64,000 nt of DNA. Source: Bugula neritina. Lineage: Eukaryota; Animalia; Bryozoa. This document shows positions 15,970 to 32,180 of the stretch, piece after piece. The DNA is taken from assembly GCA_964035545.1 (NCBI GenBank), contig OZ037773.1, positions 3,997,751 to 4,061,750 on the forward strand, given 5' to 3'. Both the position numbers and the translations under genes were made by a program. The notes under the pieces were generated by a model. It was not told the DNA's origin. It did no database searches and saw only the letters and a list, made by a program, of their open reading frames with translations. Numbering within the stretch: position 1 is the first letter of the stretch; each line of letters starts with the position of its first letter.

Positions 15970-16839
15970 CTATTAATCGTTCAAATCAACCTGAAAAGAC
16001 TTACGTATTTATTTTAATCAATTTATTAATTAGCAACATTTAATGAAAGAAGCATCTGCTATATTCATGGCAATATCAAAAACCATGACTAAACGAAAGA
16101 AACATTAACATTAACAACTAGTAGTAATAATAAAAAGGATTCTCAATAGCATAATTATTAATTGTTGAGCCTATAACTTATATCAATATCAACATGTGTA
16201 TTGTGATAATTATAATCAACTACGATTATGATGAACTCAACATAAAAATGATTGGCACCATTATAATTTTCACTATTACAGTGTGATTGTTACTGTTAGT
16301 CAGTAAGTTAGTGCCACTGACAAACACAATGAGCATGAGCTATGGCACTGTATTTTTCGTTAAGTAATTACCACCATGCCTGACTCACAGTAACTGAGAG
16401 TGACTGCCCGGTCATCTTCATCTCCGTCCCGTCATGGGCACCGGTTCATGAAACTGAGTGGTACTTGCATTGAATCAGATTAGTTTTTTTATTTTAAAAA
16501 AAGTTAAACTAAATTTACCCTTAAAAGTAGAAGTTTAAGTGAAACCTTAACTAGTGAACTTCAACTTGTACTTGTAGTTAATGTTATACTTTTACTTTTA
16601 GTTGTAAATTAAAGTTGTACTCTCGTCCATAAGCTTTAGAAAATGACAGTACAGGTATCAGGTATGACTAATAGTAATAGTAATACTAACAGTGAACTAA
16701 TACTATGAGTATGAGTAGCAGTATCACTATCACACTATGACTATCACTATGAGTATGAGTATTAGGATGACTATGAGCATACTCATACTCATAGTGATAG
16801 TATCACTATTACTATGACTTAGACTATGAGTATGAGTAT

Positions 16840-17192
16840 TGTAGTGAGTCATGCAAAGTACAAATACGGGAATCGCCCTCTCTCCGTTCTTGGAATACTA
16901 AGACCCTTATGTAGCAACCAATTAGCAGCACCGGAAGATATGCTTCCGACTCACGTGACACTTCCCGGGTTATTAACAATTGATCATGTTGTTGTAAGCG
17001 GAGGCTTGAAGTAGAAGCATGTGTTAGTAGTTGACTGATGTATAGGATAATTTGATGTGATTTTTACTTTATGTTTTATTGTGGATAATAAATATAATTA
17101 CTCGACAGCTACCCTAGTAATTGCTAGTAGAATAGCCAACTAAGTATACGCAAGTAGATAACTCACGGACAGTAATTGCACGAATTACTACA
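16840..17192 (+). repeat. 5' LTR
   Basis: Direct repeat of 21854-22206 with 3 mismatches found by eye; TG...CA ends; AATAAA at 17087-17092. Confidence 0.97.
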
Positions 17193-17193
17193 G

Positions 17194-17211
17194 TGGTGGC
17201 AGCGGTGGGAT
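17194..17211 (+). promoter_or_regulatory. Primer binding site, tRNA-Leu type
   Basis: TGGTGGCAGCGGTGGGAT lies 1 nt after the LTR and is complementary to the 3' end (...AUCCCACCGCUGCCACCA) of metazoan tRNA-Leu(AAG/TAG). Confidence 0.85.
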
Positions 17212-17227: not shown

Positions 17228-18178
17228 ATGGCAAAAGACGGCACGGAGCTACCCATTCCACTGAATGAAGGTGAGAGAGATAATGTTGATATACCTGTGG
17301 AACCAGTGGTGTTAGAAGAAGAAGTGAGAATTCCTAGAGAGCATGGTGAAGACAGATACCGGCTGAAGGCACCCACCTTCACGGGCGAAGAAGCAGTGGA
17401 GCAGTTTATCCAAGAATTCCAAGATGTGATGGAAGTTGCACAATGGCCACCAAGGGTGGCGTTGCTCAAGCTTAGGATGGCGCTGACGGACAAGGCTAAG
17501 CCGTACGGAGCGGGACCTGACATAGACGGAATCTTTGCTTCTCTGCGGGCCCGCTTTGGCATCTCCCCCATAGATGCGCGGGCCCGTCTACAAAGGCTGC
17601 GGCGTGATCCTCACACGTCGCTACAAGAGCACGCTGCCACGGTGTACCCACTAGCGCAGATCGCGTTCCGCGATCTGCCTCCAGTACACCGTGAGAGGTA
17701 TACTTATGATGCCTTCGTGCAGTCCATCAACGACTTGGGACTCCACCATCAATTCCAAGCGAGGGGAGTCACCACGGTCGAAGATGCACTGGCGGTGGGA
17801 GAAGCCTACCTCATGGCGACTCATATGCACCGCAACCGCGTGGCCTCCCGCCAGGTGGCCACGGAGCACACTACTGCTCATACAGAACCAAACGCGGAAC
17901 CCTCCGCGGTGGCTAATGTGAACCAGATGTCACTAGCATCAAAAGTCGCGCAGATGACTGACATGCTAGATAAACTGGTCGCCACATTAGCTCCCCCAAG
18001 CCAGGTAGATACCGCCCGTGAGCCTTGCGGGCCGCAGGTACAATCACCAGGCATGGGGCATAACTTCTGCTGGGGATGTGGAAGGCCAGGACATTTCCAG
18101 AAGAACTGCCCTCAACTCCAACAAGGGTTAAACTACCACAGCCCGCAGATGTTCCCACCTCCTGCGGGCCGTCTGTAA
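17228..18178 (+). CDS. gag: Gag (capsid-like region plus CCHC zinc knuckle)
   Basis: ATG at 17228; retrotransposon Gag-like LKAPTFTGEEAVEQFIQEF...W; knuckle CWGCGRPGHFQKNC. Confidence 0.9.
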   Translation: MAKDGTELPIPLNEGERDNVDIPVEPVVLEEEVRIPREHGEDRYRLKAPTFTGEEAVEQFIQEFQDVMEVAQWPPRVALLKLRMALTDKAKPYGAGPDIDGIFASLRARFGISPIDARARLQRLRRDPHTSLQEHAATVYPLAQIAFRDLPPVHRERYTYDAFVQSINDLGLHHQFQARGVTTVEDALAVGEAYLMATHMHRNRVASRQVATEHTTAHTEPNAEPSAVANVNQMSLASKVAQMTDMLDKLVATLAPPSQVDTAREPCGPQVQSPGMGHNFCWGCGRPGHFQKNCPQLQQGLNYHSPQMFPPPAGRL

Positions 18179-20472
18179 ATCACCCAGGGAGGCCCGCGCG
18201 TCTGCCGCCCCGCTGGGCGCCTCGCGGAGATGTTGTGAAGTGGCGACCCCCGCGGCAAGTAGGCTCCAGCCACTCGTCGCCTGGGTCCTCTACGCCACTC
18301 CAACACCAACACGGATCCGGCAGACGGTTGATCTCAGAGCCTGCGAGGGAAACGGTACAGGCGCCGCAAGGCGTACCGCCCCAACCTCGGCAGCTGGTCA
18401 ATAGTCGTCGCCAACCGTGGACCCCTCGACCCACAGCGAGGGAGGTGCAACCATGGCACACACAGCTGCAGCCACACGGAAGTAGCTACTTCCTGCCAGG
18501 AAAGCTAGCCGGCAAGCCTGCCAACTTCCTCCTGGACTCAGGCTGCACCACCAACCTCCTTAGCCGTCAATTCTTTGACACCTTCAGCGCTAAGGTCAAG
18601 GACGGGTTGGCACCGTATGAGGGGGATCATGGCACCCTGGCAGACGGGTCGTGCATTCCCTTCTACGGCATTATTGAGCTGACTGGTTACATCCGTAACC
18701 AGGCCATCCAAGAGACGTTTATCGTCGGGCAGCTCAACGAGGACGCTATCCTCGGGATGCCATTCTTACAACGACACGGATGTCGCATCGATTTCAGTAA
18801 ATCTGCGATGATCATGGGCGACAGGGAGCTCGCTTGTGTCGATAAGTTTGGTCGTCCTCTAGCGGGAGCAGTGCAGGTAGTACGGAGCTGTACTATACCA
18901 AGCCACTCCCGGGCTACCGTCCGCTGCAAAGTAGACGGTGGCCAAACCTCTAAGTTGGGAGTTGTCGAAAGTACGCACTCAAGAATCCAACTTGCCCATA
19001 GCTTTAGCCGGCTTACGGGACAAGGAGAGATCTTAGTGCAGTGCGTCAACCCCTCCTCAGAGACAGTAGACCTATCACCCAGGTCCATGCTGGGCCGCTT
19101 CCATCCTGTCCAGGAGGAAGCCATTGGGCCGTCGTCGGGAGCTACGACGGAAGGTCCTCAGCAGAGCCCGTCTCAAGGGCGGAGGACCGTCCCAACCCAC
19201 GCCTCCCATCCTCTAGGGACGCGTGGCTACACAGGCAACGGGAAGCGCCAGGCTATGGCTAGGTTGCCACATGGGTACAGTGAGGCGCTCCGCCACACAG
19301 ACCGCGACGCCCGCCTAAATAGAGCAGGCCGTCGTGAGGTACCACGGGCGGCGAAGACCGCCCCTGCTCAGCAACTCCAACAGAGGGCTGACACGCCCCC
19401 GGAGGCTGTCCAGAGCCTCCGCGCCAAACCTGTATGGGCTGGTAACGTTAGGGAGCTGCCGAAGCTCCAGGAAAGCCTTCCTGGGGTGGTAGCCGACGTG
19501 TACCGAGCGAAACAGGAAGGGCGACGACCCAGTAGTAAACAACGGCGACAGGGATGCGCCGAGTTACGGCTGTACTGTCAACGTTGGAACTCTCTGCGGG
19601 TCGGGCCAGATGGTCTGCTGACCATGACCTTGGCCGCCAACAGCAGACAGCCAGCCCGGAAGAGGGTCGTCTGCCCAGCTGCCATCCGCCGGGAGTTGAT
19701 ACAAGACACCCACGAGAAGACTCACGGAGGAGTCCAAGGAGTGGTCATCAAGCTACAACTCCGGTGGTACTGGCCCAACATGGAGCGGGATATCCGGCGC
19801 AGAGTGAGACGGTGCGAAGTCTGCCAGACCAACAAGCATAGCCGTCTCCCTGGTAAAGCGGGACGGCAGACGCATTGTGCGAGGAGGTCTTGGCGAGCGG
19901 AGACTGTCGTCCTGGCCGGAAACACCTCCATGCCATCTCAGGAAGACTTGGCGAGGCGAGAAAGGCCACTTCCGTCCTTGAAAGTGCGCCCACCGCCCCC
20001 AACGTCAAGCCTGCCATCACCACCACTTCCGGAACCAGAAACGGGTCCGGAAGTGCAAAAACCCCCCGTGGGAGGGGCTCCGCAAGGAGATACCAACGTA
20101 GGAACAACCGTCACCAACAGGCTGGAAAAACCACCCGTGAGACATAACAATCTACGGGTGAGCACACCGCCTCCCACAGAGACGACGCCTCCAGGACCAC
20201 ACACTAGGCAACTCCCAGCGTGTCTCAGAGACTGTGTACGTGACCGCGGTATAAGCGGCAGTAACGAAAGTCTAGAGAGGCCTCGCATGGGAAAACAGGC
20301 AAAGAGACGTGGGAGTTGTGAACACCACGGAAATCTCAACTTTTGCCTCGGCGGAATCTCACACGAGATTCATCCGCTGGAAGTGAAAAGCCCTAGTCAC
20401 GTTTCACAACCACGCTGTCCGGTCTTTACCTACGTTGATGCAGTCAAGAGTAGACGTGCCACTAAACAGTAA
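18076..20472 (+). CDS. Internally deleted Pol: aspartic protease plus integrase HHCC zinc finger; no RT, RNase H or DDE core
   Basis: FLLDSGCTTNLL and AILGMPFL (retropepsin); H(EKT)H...WYWPNM...CEVC (integrase Zn-binding). No YxDD, no RNase H motifs and no D,D(35)E core are visible in the 798-codon open frame. Confidence 0.85.
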   Translation: MWKARTFPEELPSTPTRVKLPQPADVPTSCGPSVNHPGRPARLPPRWAPRGDVVKWRPPRQVGSSHSSPGSSTPLQHQHGSGRRLISEPARETVQAPQGVPPQPRQLVNSRRQPWTPRPTAREVQPWHTQLQPHGSSYFLPGKLAGKPANFLLDSGCTTNLLSRQFFDTFSAKVKDGLAPYEGDHGTLADGSCIPFYGIIELTGYIRNQAIQETFIVGQLNEDAILGMPFLQRHGCRIDFSKSAMIMGDRELACVDKFGRPLAGAVQVVRSCTIPSHSRATVRCKVDGGQTSKLGVVESTHSRIQLAHSFSRLTGQGEILVQCVNPSSETVDLSPRSMLGRFHPVQEEAIGPSSGATTEGPQQSPSQGRRTVPTHASHPLGTRGYTGNGKRQAMARLPHGYSEALRHTDRDARLNRAGRREVPRAAKTAPAQQLQQRADTPPEAVQSLRAKPVWAGNVRELPKLQESLPGVVADVYRAKQEGRRPSSKQRRQGCAELRLYCQRWNSLRVGPDGLLTMTLAANSRQPARKRVVCPAAIRRELIQDTHEKTHGGVQGVVIKLQLRWYWPNMERDIRRRVRRCEVCQTNKHSRLPGKAGRQTHCARRSWRAETVVLAGNTSMPSQEDLARRERPLPSLKVRPPPPTSSLPSPPLPEPETGPEVQKPPVGGAPQGDTNVGTTVTNRLEKPPVRHNNLRVSTPPPTETTPPGPHTRQLPACLRDCVRDRGISGSNESLERPRMGKQAKRRGSCEHHGNLNFCLGGISHEIHPLEVKSPSHVSQPRCPVFTYVDAVKSRRATKQ
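18127..18192 (+). promoter_or_regulatory. Putative -1 programmed ribosomal frameshift signal
   Basis: In-phase heptamer G_TTA_AAC (18127-18133), a 7-nt spacer and a perfect 8-bp stem GCCCGCAG/CTGCGGGC (18141-18169); ORF2 is in the -1 frame. Confidence 0.7.
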
Positions 20473-20495
20473 TCATTTACCACTCTCATTCCAAA

Positions 20496-21553
20496 ATGTC
20501 TTACTATTCTGGATCGAAGGGTGAGTTAATTATGTTTTTGGTACGATAACTAGACTGCATCAGTCAGCTTTAGCTACACTAGCTAGCGAGCTGGAGATTC
20601 GATAATGATAAACAGTGGTGGGAATATATGTCGACTTTGATTTTAAATAATCTGCCATAGCGAGTGTGTTCTCCATCAACTATTCATTAGCCTGAATCTC
20701 ACGAGTGTAACTGAACAGAGTACCGGTCAGGCTGTACACGCCGACGGTACCTCAGTGTATAATCTTTAACACTGCTACTCTTTCAGATCACACTCGAGTG
20801 ACCACCTCCCGGTCACGGGACCAGCCAACCTCTCTGCCTATGGAAGAAGAACCTGTAATGGAGAACGGCTTACCCGTGGTGCTTCGTCGACGACACCGCT
20901 GGGTGTCACCCACGACGGAAAGGAGAACTGAGGAAGCCTGGGGACCCAGTGGACCCCACCGGACCTGCCAGGTCTGCTTCGAGGAGTGCCCGTCACACCG
21001 CTCCCTGCGTCTGCATGTAGACGCCCATTTTCTACTCCACTTCTGCCCATGCGGGTTCCACGATGTATACCCGTATCCTGTGACAGTCCATAAGCTGAGC
21101 TGCTTCGCCGGAGAGAACCATACTGTTGATGAGGACAGTTTCCCCCAATACCTGGACGCCATCAAGCCAGTCATCAAGAAGGCTATCACCCTGGCCGCAC
21201 TAGCGTCAGGGTTCCAAGTACTGCTGTTATCCGCCCGCCATAAGTCCCCTATAGTTCAGGGCCCGTCTCCTACCCCCGTCAACCCTAGCAACACCCCCGA
21301 ATTAGAAGGAACAACAATACCCTCTCTAACAGAGACTACTACAACCCCGCCAAGGCCTAGCCAGCTGGCTAATGTAGAAGAGCGGCTTGTAAGACTACAA
21401 GCCGAGTTTACGCAACTGGCCCCTGACCTGCTGGATACGACGACAGGTCTATACCAGCTGAAGGACTCAGTGGGGCAACTGAAGAGGCGGCTACGTGCCC
21501 GACAGGCTCGACACAGAGCACGATCGCTACAAGAGTCAGAGTCCACCCAATGA
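20496..21553 (+). CDS. Spliced accessory ORF3 of the LTR element (~263 aa): C2H2 and C2HC zinc fingers plus C-terminal coiled coil and basic tail
   Basis: Exon 1 20496-20520 (caaaATG, MSYYSGSK); intron 20521-20786 (G|GTGAGT ... tttaac...ctactctttcAG); exon 2 20787-21553 in frame. Fingers: CQVC-x12-H-x3-H and CPC-x12-H-x3-C. Confidence 0.75.
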
Positions 21554-21842: not shown

Positions 21843-21853
21843 GGGGGGGGCGG
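21843..21853 (+). promoter_or_regulatory. Polypurine tract
   Basis: GGGGGGGGCGG immediately 5' of the 3' LTR. Confidence 0.75.
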
Positions 21854-22206
21854 TGTAGTGAGTCATGCAAAGTACAAATACGGGAATCGCCCTCTCTCCG
21901 TTCTTGGAATACTAAGACCCTTATGTAGCAAACAATTAGCAGCACCGGAAGATATGCTTCCGACTCACGTGACACTTCCCGGGTTATTAACAATTGATCA
22001 TGTTGTTGTAAGCGGAGGCTTGAAGTAGAAGCATGTGTTAGTAGTTGACTGATGTATAGGATAATTTGATGTGATGTTTACTTTATGTTTTATTGTGGAT
22101 AATAAATATAATTACTCGACAGCTACCCTAGTAATTGCTAGTAGAATAGCCAACTAAGTATACGCAAGTAGATAACTCACGCACAGTAATTGCACGAATT
22201 ACTACA
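21854..22206 (+). repeat. 3' LTR
   Basis: Direct repeat of 16840-17192, followed by TSD GTAT. Confidence 0.97.
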
Positions 22207-25120
22207 GTATGACTATCACTATGAGTATGACTATGAGTATGAGGTACTGGACTCATTTCAACTTTCAATAATAATTGGCAGTTAAAAGCTTTTTAGCGTC
22301 TAAACAGTGCTAACTCTAACTCGTTGGGTCTACTTTAGTAGCTACCACCAAGATATTATAGCTTTTACTTTGCCCAATACCATCTAATTTCGCGTTACTT
22401 TATTTCACCACTGTAAGTATTCCGGGTAGTTCTGGAATTTCCTAGAGTCGAGTGCTCTCACGCGTACGAAGATAGTAAAGTTGCACGTTTTAGCCTCAAA
22501 ATTACGTTCTAGGATACAGGGATGGGGGGTTTAGCCGCGTGAAGCAATTTGTAAACTGAAGGGCTAAAAATTTCATCATCGTTTTTACCGTAAAGCATCG
22601 TGCACTAAAAGTAATTGTTTATCTCACTCATCATGATCATTATTATTATAACCGTAACGCGTGTACTAGTACTGGTACAAGTACAAACTCTTTGGCATGA
22701 ACTAAAGCTAAAGATCATTAAATTGCAAGTTTTTTAAAATTTCTCGCATTTTAGTACTGTATCACCCTATTATTTGTTTGAATTGAGAAGCTCAAGCTGT
22801 AAAAGTTTCATATTAAATTTTAATTTAAAATAGTTAATTTTTCAAGTTGCAAAACTGTTGCCGTTGGTGTTAACTCAACTGTTAACTGTAAAGTCATAGT
22901 GTTGCTGTTAGTGTTTACACTTACTGTAAGTGTAACTCAAACTGTTAGTGACAGTGTTAGTGTTACGTTTGGCTTTTTAGTTTTACTTTTACTTTTAGAT
23001 TTGATTATAGTTTTTCTTGATTCACCAATTAATACTCGGTAATACTAATAGTAATAGTAATACTAATAGTAATACTTAAGTTATAGTAATACTAATAGTA
23101 ATAGTAATACTTATACTAAAACTAAAAGTCCAAAACTCTCGGTATTACTATGTTATTGTTCATAATCATTGTTAATCATAATGTTACACTAACTCTAATA
23201 CATAGTGATAGTCACTTAGTGATAGTGATGGTCTTATATTAATATTTATTGTATTTTAGTTTGTTGATTTTAGTTTTTCTTTTAGTCTTACTCTTAAACC
23301 TTATCTAAGGTAATCACTAAAAGTAAAACTAAATGTAACCGTATTGGTAGTACTAATACTAATAGTAATACTGATACTAATACTAGAAATAATACACTTA
23401 CAGTAACCGTAAGTGAGCAATTCAAATAATTATTATTATTAGTATAGTAATACTAATAGTAACAACTGAAAGCTAAAATCATACTCGTAGTCGTAGTCCT
23501 AGTGATACTGATGGTCATAGTACCTGAGAAACTTTAAGTTTATCAACCAATGGAATTTTTTTTAGTACTTTTGTCACTTCGTATTACCTAGTCTAATGGT
23601 AATCTAAGTCGTTTTAGTTTTACAGTCCTGCATAAGGTTTTCGTTTTCACTATAAATTTGCATTATGATTATGTTGATATTTGTTACATACAACTAATAG
23701 TAATACTAAATTAAAATTAATCTATTAATATTAAATTCAGTATTGGTAACCATTGTCATGTTGTTGAACTTGATAGTGAGTCTCTGCGCATAGAAATGCA
23801 AAAATTGTAAATACTGTTTTAATGTTCAATCTCTTATAAGTTTTAAGCCTAATGATAATGAAGCAGTTGAAAATAGTAAAATTAATAAAATTATTTGGAC
23901 TGTAATTATAGAAACTAAGGAATCCCTAATTTCTATGGCTTTTGTTATCTAGTGATGATAAACTTTTTTTCTCATCCGGCTGTAGTGAGTAATATTGCTG
24001 AAGCTTGCTGTAGAACAATCAGACTGACTGTTAAAGAGTTTTTATTGTTTTTTATTCTTATTCATAGATAATTTAGTAGACAATACGTTTTTAATTTTAG
24101 TTGCACAAACTTTTAATTTTCTTTCGTATTTTAGTAAACTACTAGCAATTTCTTAGATATGCATAACCTGTCTTAATAATTTTACTACTGGACAATACCC
24201 AAAAGTAATAAAATTTAATTAAGGGTCTAAGATGCCAGAAATGATGTGGAAAAAGAACGAGTTAAATAAGTGTGTGTGATGTAGCTTTTGGTGCTTATTA
24301 AGTTGTTTATTTCAGAGTGCATATATTTAACTAAAATCTCAATGTTGTCATCTGAACCAAGACATGCTGATGTCCTGGATGGAGGTGATAGGAGAGGATC
24401 TGGGCCCAGCTGCATTAGCGTCTGGGCCACTAGGTACCGCCAAACTCTCTAATAATCCATCTGGCTCTAATAGGCTTTAACTCCGTCAATCAAACTCAAT
24501 CATTTTGCACAATCGAATACAACTATGACCATTACAGCTTTGCATGCTGGCTATATTTAGTTCCACAATAACGCTGATGTTGGTTGGCCAATGTTTTGGA
24601 TTGTACGCATTCAAGCATGCCCTTATCCACAATGGACTTTTTCGTTTTTCCAAAGATCAATATTCTGGTGATGCAATTGTAGTCTATTTGTACAGTAAAT
24701 CAACTCAATGTCTTAAATCAATGAACAACAACAATACATCAGGATAGTTTTGGCAGCGTTTCAAATTATTGGCACCCAGCAGCAGTATTCTGCATAAAGT
24801 AGCAGCCTAGAGTGGCAGCGTAGAGTAGATTGGCAGCAGTAGTTTGCTCAAAGCTCTTGCTTATTAGACAAGCTAGTAGTGATTTAATGAATTTATATCT
24901 ATTGATTTTATTGACTTAAACCTTTTGTTCTTCACCTTTCTTCTCTTGTATATAAAATGTAAGTGTTGATCAGCTTTGTTTACTGTATGTTGTTTAGTAT
25001 TCAGCTGTTTGTTTCAGTGCTGTATTGGTTGTTATTGTTGATCTGTAGTAAATACTTGAGGACTGCAATACATTTTACCTGTCACCAGTGTTGTACTCAG
25101 CATAACAAGTGTGGCCTGCT

Positions 25121-28100: not shown

Positions 28101-31100
28101 TGCCACCTGTACTAAAACTTGTGGCTATGTTTGATTTGTGATATGCAGGTTTCACCTATACACAGCGAGAAGTAGCGTGGACATGCTTGACTAGATACCA
28201 GTTTCATGCGACTCACATGTTGGATGATCACAAATGCCGAAACCAAATTATTTGCTAACCTACTATTTTAATTTTTTGTTACAAGCTAGGCGAGATAGCT
28301 GTTGTTTTTATCTGCAGATAATAGATAAAGATGTCAACTTCAAGATTTTCATTTTGAAGAAAGTGAATTTTTGCTGTCCTTTTCAGCTCCTTGGGTTTTG
28401 AAAATACATTTGTTTATCAATGCCAGGGTTCCTACAATGCGGGATATGTGGTCCGATGGAACTAGCTAAGATAAAGCTACAGGTTCAGGGGGAAGGTCTA
28501 AAGTACGGCAGCGTAAAGAGCATCGACTATACCGGCAGCATCGAATGTCTCGGGAAGATTTACAATATGGCGGGCTTTCGTGGAGTTTCCAGAGGTCTGT
28601 TTCTTTTTGTTCCAGTGTCTTTCCTCGTTCTCTTGTAAGAGTATTGTCAACAGAGACTGAACTGTTCAGAGAAATTTTAGTCAATTTTTTTAACCCAATT
28701 GCAAATAAGCTTGTATAATTTCTCTGCTAAATCTCTATTAGAATTACTAAAAGATATTATGTGATAATATAGCCCGAAATTTAATTCACACCTATGATTG
28801 GTTTACCTATTTGTTGTCGTCTATGTATGTTATGTTGAGTGTTATATTTAGCATTTACCTCTGGCAGGTATGATAGCAACTATATTAAGAGAGGTGCCAG
28901 CCTTTGGGACTTACTTTCTGACATATGAGTGGATCTGCCGTAAGATGACAAAGGATGTAAGTTCTAAGTCTATTCAAGCCTGTAAATACTTGCTGCTCTT
29001 TGTTGATGTGCTGGTAAACATGGATTGAGATGAAACCAAACTTTTGTTTTTAAATTACCAAGTGATTTCTAGCATTTTAAAACGTGCTTCTCTTACACTC
29101 TGAGAATTCAATTCTCTTAGATCAGTTTTTAACTGTTCACCTGTCTATCAACAGCTTTCCAAAAACTACCATTTTAATGAGTGTGCTGATTCCCTCTCAG
29201 TTTCCTGTCTGCTGATTCTCTCTCAGTTTCCTGTCTGCTGATTCCCTCTCAGTTTCCTGTCTGCTGATTCTCTCTCAGTTTCCTGTCTGCTGATTCCCTC
29301 TCAGTTTCCTGTCTGCTGATTCTCTCTCAGTTTCTTGTCTGCTGATTCCCTCTCAGTTTCCTGTCTGCTGATTTCTTCTCAGTTTCTTGTCTACTTATTT
29401 CTTCTCAGTTTCCTGTCTGCTGATTTCTTCTCAGTTTCCTGTCTGCTGATTTCTTCTCAGTTTCCTGTGTGCTGATTCTCTCTCAGTTTCCTGTCTGCTG
29501 ATTTCTTCTCAGTTTCCTGCCTGCTGATTTCTTCTCAGTTTCCTGTCTGCTGATTCCCTCTCAGTTTCCTGTCTGCTGATTCTCTCTCAGTTTCTTGTCT
29601 GCTGATTCCCTCTCAGTTTCCTGTCTGCTGATTTCTTCTCAGTTTCTTGTCTACTTATTTCTTCTCAGTTTCCTGTCTGCTGATTTCTTCTCAGTTTCCT
29701 GTCTGCTGATTTCTTCTCAGTTTCCTGTGTGCTGATTCTCTCTCAGTTTCCTGTCTGCTGATTTCTTCTCAGTTTCCTGCCTGCTGATTTCTTCTCAGTT
29801 TCCTGTCTGCTGATTTCTTCTCAGTTTCCTATCTGCTGATTCCCTCTCAGTTTCCTGTCTGCTGATTCTCTCTCAGTTTCTTGTCTGCTGATTCCCTCTC
29901 AGTTTCCTGTCTGCTGATTTCTTCTCAGTTTCTTGTCTACTTATTTCTTCTCAGTTTCCTGTCTGCTGATTTCTTCTCAGTTTCCTGTCTGCTGATTTCT
30001 TCTCAGTTTCCTGTGTGCTGATTCTCTCTCAGTTTCCTGTCTGCTGATTTCTTCTCAGTTTCCTGTCTGCTGATTTCTTCTCAGTTTCCTATCTGCTGAT
30101 TCCCTCTCAGTTTCCTGTCTGCTGATTCTCTCTCAGTTTCTTGTCTGCTGATTCCCTCTCAGTTTCCTGTCTGCTGATTTCTTCTCAGTTTCCTGTCTAC
30201 TGATTTCTTCTCAGTTTCCTGTCTGCTGATTTCTTCTCGGTTTCCTGTCTGCTGATTCTCTCTCAGTTTCCTGTCTGCTGATTCCCTCTCACTTTCCTGT
30301 CTACTGATTTCTTCTCAGTTTCCTGTCTACTGATTTCTTCTCAGTTTCCTGTCTGCTGATTCCCTCTCAGTTTCTTGTCTGCTGATTTCTTCTCAGTTTC
30401 CTGTCTGCTGATTCCCTCTCACTTTCCTGTCTACTGATTTCTTCTCAGTTTCCTGTCTACTGATTTCTTCTCAGTTTCCTGTCTGCTGATTCCCTCTCAG
30501 TTTCTTGTCTGCTGATTCTCTCTCAGTTTCCTGTCTGCTGATTCCCTCTCACTTTCCTGTCTACTGATTTCTTCTCAGTTTCCTGTCTACTGATTTCTTC
30601 TCAGTTTCCTGTCTGCTGATTCCCTCTCAGTTTCTTGTCTGCTGATTCCCTCTCAGTTTCCTGTCTGCTGATTCCCTCTCAGTTTCTTGTCTGCTGATTT
30701 CTTCTCAGTTTCCTGTCTGCTGATTTCTTCTCAGTTTCCTGTCTGCTGATTCCCTCTCAGTTTCTTGTCTGCTGATTCCCTCTCAGTTTCTTGTCTGCTG
30801 ATTCCCTTTGAGTTTCCTGTCTGCTGATTCCCTCTCACTTTCCTGTCTACTGATTTCTTCTCAGTTTCCTATCTGCTGATTCCCTCTTAGTTTCTTGTCT
30901 GCTGATTTCTTCTCAGTTTCCTGTCTGCTGATTCCCTCTCAGTTTCCTGTCTACTGATTTCTTCTCAGTTTCCTGTCTGCTGATTTCTTCTCAGTTTCCT
31001 GTCTGCTGATTCCCTCTCAGTTTCCTGTCTGCTGATTTATTCTCACTTTCCTGTCTGCTGATTCCCTCTCAGTTTCTTGTCTGCTGATTCCCTTTGAGTT

Positions 31101-32180
31101 TCCTGTCTGCTGATTCCCTCCCACTTTCCTGTCTACTGATTCCCTTTCAGTTTCTTGTCTGCTGATTCCCTTTGAGTTTGCTGTCTGCTGATTTCCTCTC
31201 AGTTTTCTGTCTGCTGATTTCTTCTCAGTTTCCTATCTGCTGATTTCCTCTCAGTTCCCTGTCTGCTGATTCCCTCTCAGTTTGCTCTTAATAGCGCATG
31301 TTCAACCCAATGAGTTGTATCCTCGTCTGTTTGTTAGTCTGAATTCTATTCTCATCTGTTCGTTAGACTGAGACGGAGTGTTCCACTGGCACCCTTCTTC
31401 TCTCAGGAGGTCTGGCCGGCTGTGCTGCCTGGATCATCACCTACCCTATTGACGTCATCAAAACTAGAATACAAACAGATGGAGCCCTTCGACAAGGTAA
31501 CAGGAAGTAGAAGTGGCTAGGCGGTGCTGATGTACTATTTAGGGTTATATGCACTAATAGTATATAGACTTTTGGCCATAGCTTCCTTGTAATATGTGTC
31601 ATGGCTATTACGTATTTAGGTTTTGTTATTTCAATACATTAAAGTCAGTTTAGGAATTTATCATCAAATGTTGAGCAATATTTTTCAGCTTCAATCTTGT
31701 TTTTTTGAGCATTTCAAACAGTCTGTTGAACTATTCCTTGTATTCTGTAGGGAGACTGGTATACAAATACTCTGGTTATTTAGACTGCATAAGAAAGTCT
31801 ATTTCAGCTGATGGGTACAAAGTGTTTGGTAAAGGTCTGAATGCTACTCTACTCAGGGCGTTTCCTACGAATGCGGCTACTTTCGCTGTAAGCATTTTAT
31901 TCGCAAGATGAGTTACTTTGTATTTTCAACTCACTCTGAGACAAATTTTGGGTCGGCCATTATTTCATCAGCTGTATATTCACTCTTTTATTTTGACTGC
32001 CAACATTTCTCAACTCTTTCTGTGGTGTTCATCTGCATACTTCCTGTATTAACTGTATACTTCTAGCACATCTTGTAGGTTGTTGCATGGATCCTGCGGC
32101 ATATGGCACCGTCGAATTCATCTAATGACAGGAAGTCGTCCATTGAACGAGCTACTTCCTTCGCTCAAATCGATGGATAA
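25121..32180 (+). CDS. SLC25A29: Mitochondrial basic amino acid carrier-like (SLC25A29/45/48 group), copy A (~309 aa)
   Basis: Exons 25121-25157, 25676-25719, 26925-27018, 27784-27912, 28427-28594, 28868-28956, 31367-31496, 31751-31887 and 32079-32180. Three carrier signatures ([24 protein letters not shown]), plus DFVAGC, FGVQGN and LLRAFPTNAATF. Confidence 0.92.
26362..26710. repeat. 24-bp minisatellite (catgtatgtaagctataatatata)
   Basis: About 14 near-identical units in intron 2 of copy A. Confidence 0.92.
29184..31285. repeat. 26-bp minisatellite, ~80 copies (gctgattccctctcagtttcctgtct)
   Basis: Continuous ~2.1-kb array filling intron 6 of copy A. Confidence 0.96.

Follow-up and report, generated by a model that had tools for sequence, protein, structure and literature searches.

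ORF3, the open reading frame downstream of ORF2 in an LTR retrotransposon of Bugula neritina, is, as judged from its sequence and from those of its homologs, a conserved and spliced accessory gene of a non-autonomous Gypsy-type element. Its product may be a nuclear regulator that is made from spliced RNA, binds the element's own DNA (likely the LTR) and raises or protects its transcription. We favour this reading tentatively, with a confidence somewhat short of even, because of four features described below, namely the kind of zinc finger, the basic helix, the coil and host relatives that resemble transcription factors. As in complex retroviruses, such a regulator would be an on-switch made by the element itself. 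The features of the element within the window (the whole 64,000-nucleotide stretch of DNA that was analysed) are as follows.

16836..16839, no strand: left target-site duplication GTAT (right copy at 22207-22210)
16840..17192, plus strand: 5' LTR of 353 nt with TG...CA ends, AATAAA at 17087 and the palindrome CGGAAG-N5-CTTCCG at 16932
17194..17211, plus strand: primer-binding site (PBS), presumably tRNA-Leu-like; an identical 18-mer is found at the head of two Gypsy elements, L057 and L067
17228..18178, plus strand: 316-aa gag ORF containing a CCHC knuckle (PF00098 at E=0.001, narrowly under the cut-off)
17228..17270, plus strand: gag leader exon of 14 codons plus 1 nt, with the phase-1 donor AAG/GTGAGA (17271)
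18064..20472, plus strand: ORF2, 802 codons open, with protease (LDSG), spacer, integrase H2C2 finger and low-complexity tail
20496..20520, plus strand: 25-nt ATG exon with the phase-1 donor AGG/GTGAGT
20521..20786, plus strand: GT-AG intron of 266 nt, predicted to be highly structured, with a long stem at 20594-20700
20702..20796, plus strand: predicted stem at the acceptor, in which 20702-20719 would pair with 20779-20796, with TTTAAC in an inner hairpin
20787..21553, plus strand: ORF3 main exon (residues 1-254 numbered from 20789)
20867..21244, plus strand: two-finger domain, C2H2 (C60 C63 H76 H80) and C2HC (C86 C88 H101 C105), with flanking helices
21362..21547, plus strand: long C-terminal helix (predicted helix 192-253), a heptad repeat followed by an Arg-rich tail
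21843..21853, plus strand: G-rich polypurine tract (PPT)
21854..22206, plus strand: 3' LTR, with 3 mismatches in 353 nt to the 5' LTR

LTR ends of the form TG...CA, a target-site duplication, a PBS and a PPT are all present, as expected of an LTR element; given the GTAT duplication, the PBS, the PPT and the three LTR mismatches, the insertion is therefore young. Gag (24% identity), protease and the integrase finger match those of L057, whose pol has the Gypsy order. In the present copy, the protease lies ahead of an integrase H2C2 remnant, and the full pol order is unreadable with RT and RNase H missing. When ORF2 was compared with four related pols, the protease/spacer and pre-integrase parts matched and nothing between or after them did. 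Pfam yielded no match to RT, RNase H or the integrase core, ORF2 contains no YxDD motif, and tblastn with the RT, RNase H and integrase-core parts of the four pols found no match anywhere in the 64-kb window. Because an intact RT, RNase H and integrase core are missing, this copy is a non-autonomous Gypsy-type LTR element with an ORF2 that falls short of a full pol. The bins of the element in run X1 have a summed contig depth of 3,000-40,000 compared with ~90 for single flank contigs, which points to a high-copy family, depth being no copy number.

Several other properties of this copy were recorded. ORF2 remains open for 802 codons despite the loss of RT/RNase H and the integrase core, and X1 shows a high-depth +1/-1 indel pair at 19533/19545 within it. 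The strongest folding window of the element (19390-19539, z -7.1, sense strand only) lies near the site of the missing RT and is a candidate cis-acting RNA element. The LTR stretch 16845-16975 contains TGAGTCA, the inverted CGGAAG-N5-CTTCCG and TCACGTGA, which we take to be AP-1-, ETS- and E-box-like, respectively. The flanks (16660-16839 and 22207-22245) consist of an array of AGTATG/ACTATG hexamers that itself has a high depth in X1, and targeting to this array is possible.

The gene structure proposed for ORF3 in the first-pass annotation of this DNA was reproduced at every coordinate. ORF2 stops with TAA at 20470-20472, and 23 nt later an ATG at 20496 opens a 25-nt exon that ends in G/GTGAGT (20521). 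The 266-nt intron ends in ...TCTTTAACACTGCTACTCTTTCAG at 20786 (final bases TTTCAG), and joining the two exons in phase 1 preserves the frame and yields a 263-aa product whose only stop is the terminal one. The intron had also been called AT-rich; this is so by contrast only (41% GC versus 57-59% in ORF2 and exon 2), since its composition is just moderately biased and resembles that of the LTR and the 3' UTR. That the intron is real is borne out by one X1 contig that joins 20520>20787, an exact 266-nt GT..AG skip, with a depth of 843 compared with about 16,000 in the donor bin. This joint is represented by a single contig, whose short side of 28 nt was placed at 80% likeness. Whether X1 is DNA or RNA is not recorded, and the run may be related to the source of the window and is not independent of it; its even cover of the intergenic flanks suggests DNA. 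If X1 is DNA, the contig represents retrotransposed spliced copies, and if it is RNA, splicing is observed directly.

Donor 20521 fits 8 of 9 consensus positions and is one of two such sense-strand sites in the element, a number that is not above chance (shuffle mean 1.3; three on the antisense strand). The other site, overlooked in the first-pass annotation, is 17271 in gag codon 15, which is in phase 1 like both 20521 and the acceptor. One homolog, P0015 (one protein on one 5.3-kb contig), starts with a Gag leader that is identical to the Gag of the window at 11 of 14 positions (pairwise E=5e-06) and then passes straight into exon-2 sequence. By its sequence, P0015 is the product expected from a 17270>20787 splice, and the retrovirus-like gag donor (17271) thus appears to be used as well; the corresponding joint is not among the 15 of 45 X1 joints listed. 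The proposal that the 25-nt ATG exon is the sole first exon is not supported as it stands, because P0015 has the gag leader on the same acceptor, and no homolog in the set starts with MSYYSGSK, the start peptide of the 25-nt exon. Translation from an ATG that lies 3.6 kb away from the LTR would depend on reinitiation or on an internal start, and the mRNA spliced from the gag donor is therefore the more plausible one. An AG at 20469, preceded by a weak pyrimidine tract, would create a 51-nt phase-1 cassette exon (20470-20520) that keeps the frame when placed between gag donor and ORF3 acceptor, and the ATG at 20496 could be an internal Met of this exon.

The junction recurs in related copies. 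Residues upstream of the junction motif are present in 33 of the 135 close proteins (related copies rather than independent ones), 31 of which read S/D, L/D or S/G, as YAG/G requires; the remaining two are P0015 and a misplaced match, P0059. The intron is also kept in divergent copies, as P0002 reads through intron-homologous sequence from 20525. The apparent paradox of a sense-strand intron in a retroelement, which had been emphasized at the outset, is milder than it seemed: spliced env-position ORFs are ordinary in LTR elements according to the available text of two reports (PMC5408684, PMC10309623), and X1 contains an intron-less form.

All of the protein features noted at first, namely a C2H2 finger, a C2HC finger, a heptad run and an Arg-rich tail, are present in the ORF3 product. 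We identified 131 homologs among 1902 candidates (50-92% identity among the 120 matches listed) and 88 representatives in a 50%-clustered library, with identities down to 26%. Among the 45 rows of the close-homolog alignment A1 other than the query, each of the eight zinc ligands is kept in 93-100%, and conservation in A1 amounts to 79-83% in the fingers, 49% in the linker and 88% (column mean) in residues 190-246 of the C-terminal helix. The ligands are also present in 36-40 of the 40 rows of the distant-homolog alignment A4, where residues 71 and 74, both in the helix of finger 1, are K/R in 82% and 90% of the rows, respectively. Most of the 20 distant full-length homologs end in a heptad helix as judged by eye, and the Arg-rich tail contains 8 K/R in residues 231-254. 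Alignment A2 gave no usable pattern. The view of ORF3 as a conserved non-Env gene in the env position is supported, and with 131 homologs and near-invariant ligands an artefact or chance ORF was rejected, as was a capture unique to this copy. Given the constrained ligands, neither splice-site loss nor neutral decay of ORF3 in other copies, nor a one-copy capture, any of which had been named as refuting the original proposal, was encountered.

Truncations and frameshifts are frequent among the ORF3 homologs, as expected of copies in decay. In P0094 the ORF2 tail continues into ORF3, and P0151 and P0172 extend beyond ORF3 into 3' UTR and PPT sequence; from these sequences, the close homologs are tied to the element, by the ORF2 tail on one side and by the PPT on the other. 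Searches of metagenome, viral and genome contigs recovered no DNA context for ORF3 homologs, and a search for longer fused forms, which covered 971-2770 aa, detected none. An acidic-hydrophobic motif occurs in 7 of 26 distant N-termini (0.24 expected), the pattern having been picked post hoc and several carriers being related, and fits an activation domain or a nuclear export signal (NES) equally. The ORF3 protein of the window has neither this motif nor the VKxE motifs described below. We agree with the first-pass annotation that the protein is not Env: its N-terminus is polar, and hydropathy averaged over 19 aa peaks at only 1.55, at a site within the predicted finger domain. An Env of the errantivirus type or a retroviral fusogen was therefore rejected on the basis of hydropathy.

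AlphaFold2 modelled residues 21-164 with a deep alignment at pLDDT 91 and pTM 0.83, compared with a poor full-length model (pLDDT 57), so that ORF3 is confidently predicted to carry a compact two-finger domain of ~130 aa with extra helices. Foldseek, which had been suggested as a check, returned nothing at E<=0.001. All structure matches are below Z 4.2 (best 4.1), which represents a common arrangement, and unrelated helical proteins rank equally. The rows of low rmsd are tandem DNA-binding C2H2 pairs (Kaiso, SALL4 and ZBTB38), on which both fingers overlay (Kaiso, Z 3.8, rmsd 3.5, 59 aligned; SALL4, Z 3.5, rmsd 3.0, 51 aligned). The A4 profile matches C2H2 fingers of SALL3 (3.8e-05), HIC2 (5.6e-05) and ZBTB20 (2e-04), and the homologs P0173 and P0168 match PF13894/PF00096, while ORF3 itself has no Pfam match. 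Atlas neighbours are unnamed clusters and C2H2 families at 0.88-0.95 and serve as leads only.

Finger 1 follows the C-x2-C-x12-H-x3-H pattern with a conserved hydrophobic core and is, by pattern and profile, like the Krueppel-type C2H2 fingers of SALL, ZBTB/Kaiso and HIC2, the tandem overlay being weak. In contrast to Krueppel-type arrays, finger 2 is a C2HC finger (C-x-C-x12-H-x3-C), the 5-aa linker is FLLHF rather than TGEKP, and both fingers are part of a predicted 130-aa domain. Finger 2 in the subfamily of the window also has prolines (DVYPYPV) where distant relatives have R-D...R. The low-Z folds, these prolines and the absent TGEKP linker count against a DNA-binding role. C2H2 fingers also bind RNA and protein.

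The species-named homologs (3 of 30 clusters looked up) are all bryozoan gene models. The ORF3 module is carried by Watersipora subatra XP_067940964.1 (two tandem domains) and XP_067944745.1, and by the cluster of Bugula neritina KAF6037488.1 (P0223); in Bugula-type sequences, the module is again a phase-1 terminal exon. KAF6037488.1 and the Logan protein P0221 have in common a 64-aa acidic leader, which is 77% identical between them, contains two VKxE motifs (presumably SUMO motifs) and shows no similarity to the Gag of the window. In P0223 and P0221, this leader is joined to different double-finger terminal exons, and the read-through forms of the two part at S/G and V/G. The shared leader may reflect alternative finger exons within one host gene, or the trapping of element exons by host leaders. 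Bryozoan models with the acidic leader and VKxE motifs have what looks like a transcription-factor-like layout, and the host genes with the ORF3 module may be domesticated. In a midpoint-rooted domain tree of 51 rows, the family of the window forms one well-supported clade with P0138 and P0155, which gives no direction of transfer.

A 328-nt stretch centred on the intron region has a better predicted fold than any of 100 shuffled versions (z -4.2), a value that is not unique, since 16 of 70 sense-strand windows of the element have z<-2.5; none of three 150-nt windows within the intron reaches z<-2.5, and the 3' UTR shows no structure (z 0.24). For the final 10 bases of the intron, the predicted mean unpaired probability is 0.13, a value as low as that of only 2 of 40 random YAG sites, and the branch-like TTTAAC is predicted to lie inside a hairpin. 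In favour of the structure, the majority alleles of X1 at 20627 and 20629 turn predicted U-G pairs into C-G. Five variants, each from a single X1 contig, fall within 20739-20775: the one at 20756 disrupts a predicted pair, another leaves its pair intact as G-U, and the other three affect unpaired positions. The disrupted pair speaks against the structure, as does an 86-nt deletion in X1 (20689>20776, depth 1478) that takes out the branch-like TTTAAC. If the predicted structure forms, a weak and hidden acceptor would be a reasonable explanation for the dominance of unspliced RNA.

L057 and L067 are autonomous Gypsy elements with the same PBS and a double zinc finger after the integrase. In L057 (1125-7628), a dUTPase lies between RNase H and integrase, and a Pol tail of ~650 aa contains the double finger and a terminal helix in frame at the Pol end. 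The finger ORF of L067 (6503-7978) is separate from pol, comprises 492 codons with two C2H2 fingers and is preceded by an acceptor-like sequence just ahead of its ATG; several strong donors are present in the 5' leader of L067. Homology to ORF3 is not significant for either the L057 tail (hhalign probability 5%; domain HMM -3 bits) or L067 (hhalign 12%), and on this sequence evidence the two appear to be layout analogues of the ORF3 element only.

Spliced non-Env ORF3s are already known in CERV and in rotifers. CERV of the Caenorhabditis elegans Gypsy/Ty3 element Cer1 is encoded by an env-position ORF whose spliced mRNA shares the Gag N-terminus, and is needed for export of genomic RNA (PMC10309623). 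It comprises 517 aa in 5 exons with H/M/G domains and a C4-type loop, without obvious homology beyond nematodes in the available text of that report, whereas ORF3 has about 265 aa, a tandem C2H2 and C2HC pair and a terminal coil; the role of CERV was shown by mutants, and ORF3 is known from sequence. In bdelloid rotifers, LTR retrotransposons carry non-envelope ORF3s after pol, typically expressed from spliced messages, of GDSL esterase, DEDDy nuclease, TM or CC type, the last label resembling the coil of ORF3 (PMC5408684); the word 'finger' is absent from the main text of that study as available on rotifer ORF3s. The sORF1 and sORF2 of the Drosophila MDG1 group are accessory non-Env Gypsy genes, and sORF1 gives nuclear staining; unlike ORF3, they lie upstream of gag, are unspliced, encode 70-110 aa and have no zinc fingers described in the part available (bioRxiv 2025.03.14.642691). 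The available text of PMC13524379 contains neither 'zinc' nor 'splic', and 'ORF' and 'zinc' are absent as whole words from that of PMC6238403. Our literature search revealed no Gypsy ORF3 of this kind, with zinc fingers and a coil; its scope did not extend to repeat databases, subscription papers or supplements, which may already annotate this ORF.

If ORF3 is a DNA-binding regulator, its action could be pictured as follows. RNA started in the LTR would be spliced part of the time, the acceptor being hidden, and the unspliced RNA would serve as gag mRNA and genome, thereby keeping the intron in most copies. The spliced RNA would encode a Gag14-ORF3 protein of 269 aa and would now and then be retrotransposed. 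The coiled coil would, as its heptads suggest, dimerise the protein, nuclear entry would depend on the basic tail, and DNA would be contacted through the basic helix of finger 1. An autonomous partner, of which none was found, would have to supply RT and integrase in trans. A bolder picture, which we regard as rather doubtful, is that a Gypsy lineage encodes its own zinc-finger transcription regulator, with a spliced subgenomic RNA, positive feedback on the LTR in the style of complex retroviruses and no envelope, and that the same phase-1 exon module has moved between elements and bryozoan genes, with one acidic leader spliced to different finger exons.

An alternative that ranks closely behind, though it too is rather doubtful, is that ORF3 works in the manner of Rev or CERV, by binding the structured intron RNA, oligomerising and either licensing the export of unspliced RNA or blocking splicing. 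This would explain why the intron is kept in most copies. The gene plan, a Gag N-terminus spliced to an env-position ORF, is that of CERV, as found in P0015 (one sequence only); the Arg-rich tail and the structured RNA inside both introns are consistent with such a function, and an element with strong donors and an acceptor in use must have some way to export its unspliced RNA. However, the profile and structure neighbours of ORF3 are DNA-binding fingers, neither CERV nor Rev is among the matches of the homolog, Foldseek, profile or structure searches of databases, an Rfam search of the element gave no match, and the hidden acceptor could by itself hold splicing low without any protein. A class-1a NES-like string is present in three distant homologs that are related to one another, and 19 of 46 A1 rows have one at residues 138-147, but this pattern is common by chance, is only partly conserved and lies inside a predicted domain helix.

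The remaining explanations concern the origin or the physical role of the module. It seems improbable that the module tethers integration to chromatin or DNA, in the way of a C-terminal add-on of integrase but supplied in this element as a separate protein. The double finger and terminal helix in frame at the Pol end of L057 and the insertion of the present copy in the AGTATG/ACTATG array would fit a tether; however, the L057 tail shows no significant homology to ORF3, the finger ORF of L067 is separate from pol, and the env-position ORF of Cer1 also lies within one long polyprotein frame yet works as CERV, according to the available text (PMC10309623). Capture of a host transcription-factor exon long ago, together with its acceptor and part of an intron, would make ORF3 a passenger or a host-serving sequence that plays no part in the cycle of the element. 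The bryozoan gene models that carry the module, as a phase-1 terminal exon in Bugula-type sequences, and its persistence in an element stripped of RT and integrase are in line with this, but the frame and the ligands are kept across copies of 50-92% identity while the linker drifts, unlike in a passenger, and the gag donor is in phase and used, so that we consider this origin unlikely. The env position and the coiled coil could also suit a structural or transmission protein, either an Env substitute or a particle component; given that the best hydropathy window (1.55) is inside the finger domain, that the N-terminus is polar and that the zinc fingers and basic tail are of an intracellular type, such a role is very improbable.

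Foamy-virus Tas is a small nuclear regulator that is made from spliced RNA near the 3' end and acts on its own element. HIV Rev is another regulator of this kind (PMC10309623, available text). No homology of ORF3 to either was found, and the element of ORF3 is, in contrast, a retrotransposon without env. Most env-position ORFs of LTR retrotransposons are without clear homology or known function, and in the literature surveyed, as far as its available text goes, a role has been tested for CERV alone (PMC10309623). ORF3 provides a second, apparently unrelated candidate regulator, with a predicted fold, junction evidence for two donors and a candidate RNA switch at the acceptor, and it has host relatives in sequenced bryozoans. 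If the proposed LTR binding is true, ORF3 would represent a retrotransposon that encodes its own transcription factor; if RNA export is true, it would be an independent Rev-like invention.

Wider scans were performed for related elements. A PBS scan of metagenomes returned 115 of about 1700 stretches, and ORF3 profiles had no match in these 115. A loose double-finger pattern applied to 117 loci retrieved L057, L067 and a repeat artefact, L069; L030 and L079 stop short of the post-integrase region. Viral scans with RT and protease queries yielded nothing, and other PBS scans yielded 0 and 2 loci, the two being devoid of a finger ORF. In many elements that share this PBS (L013, L059, L001 and other WLWD01 loci), the integrase precedes RT and there is no double finger, an order that in L013, L059 and L001 we take to be Gmr1-like. 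Elsewhere in the window, a tandem array with a 26-nt period and about 80 copies is located at ~29050-31400.
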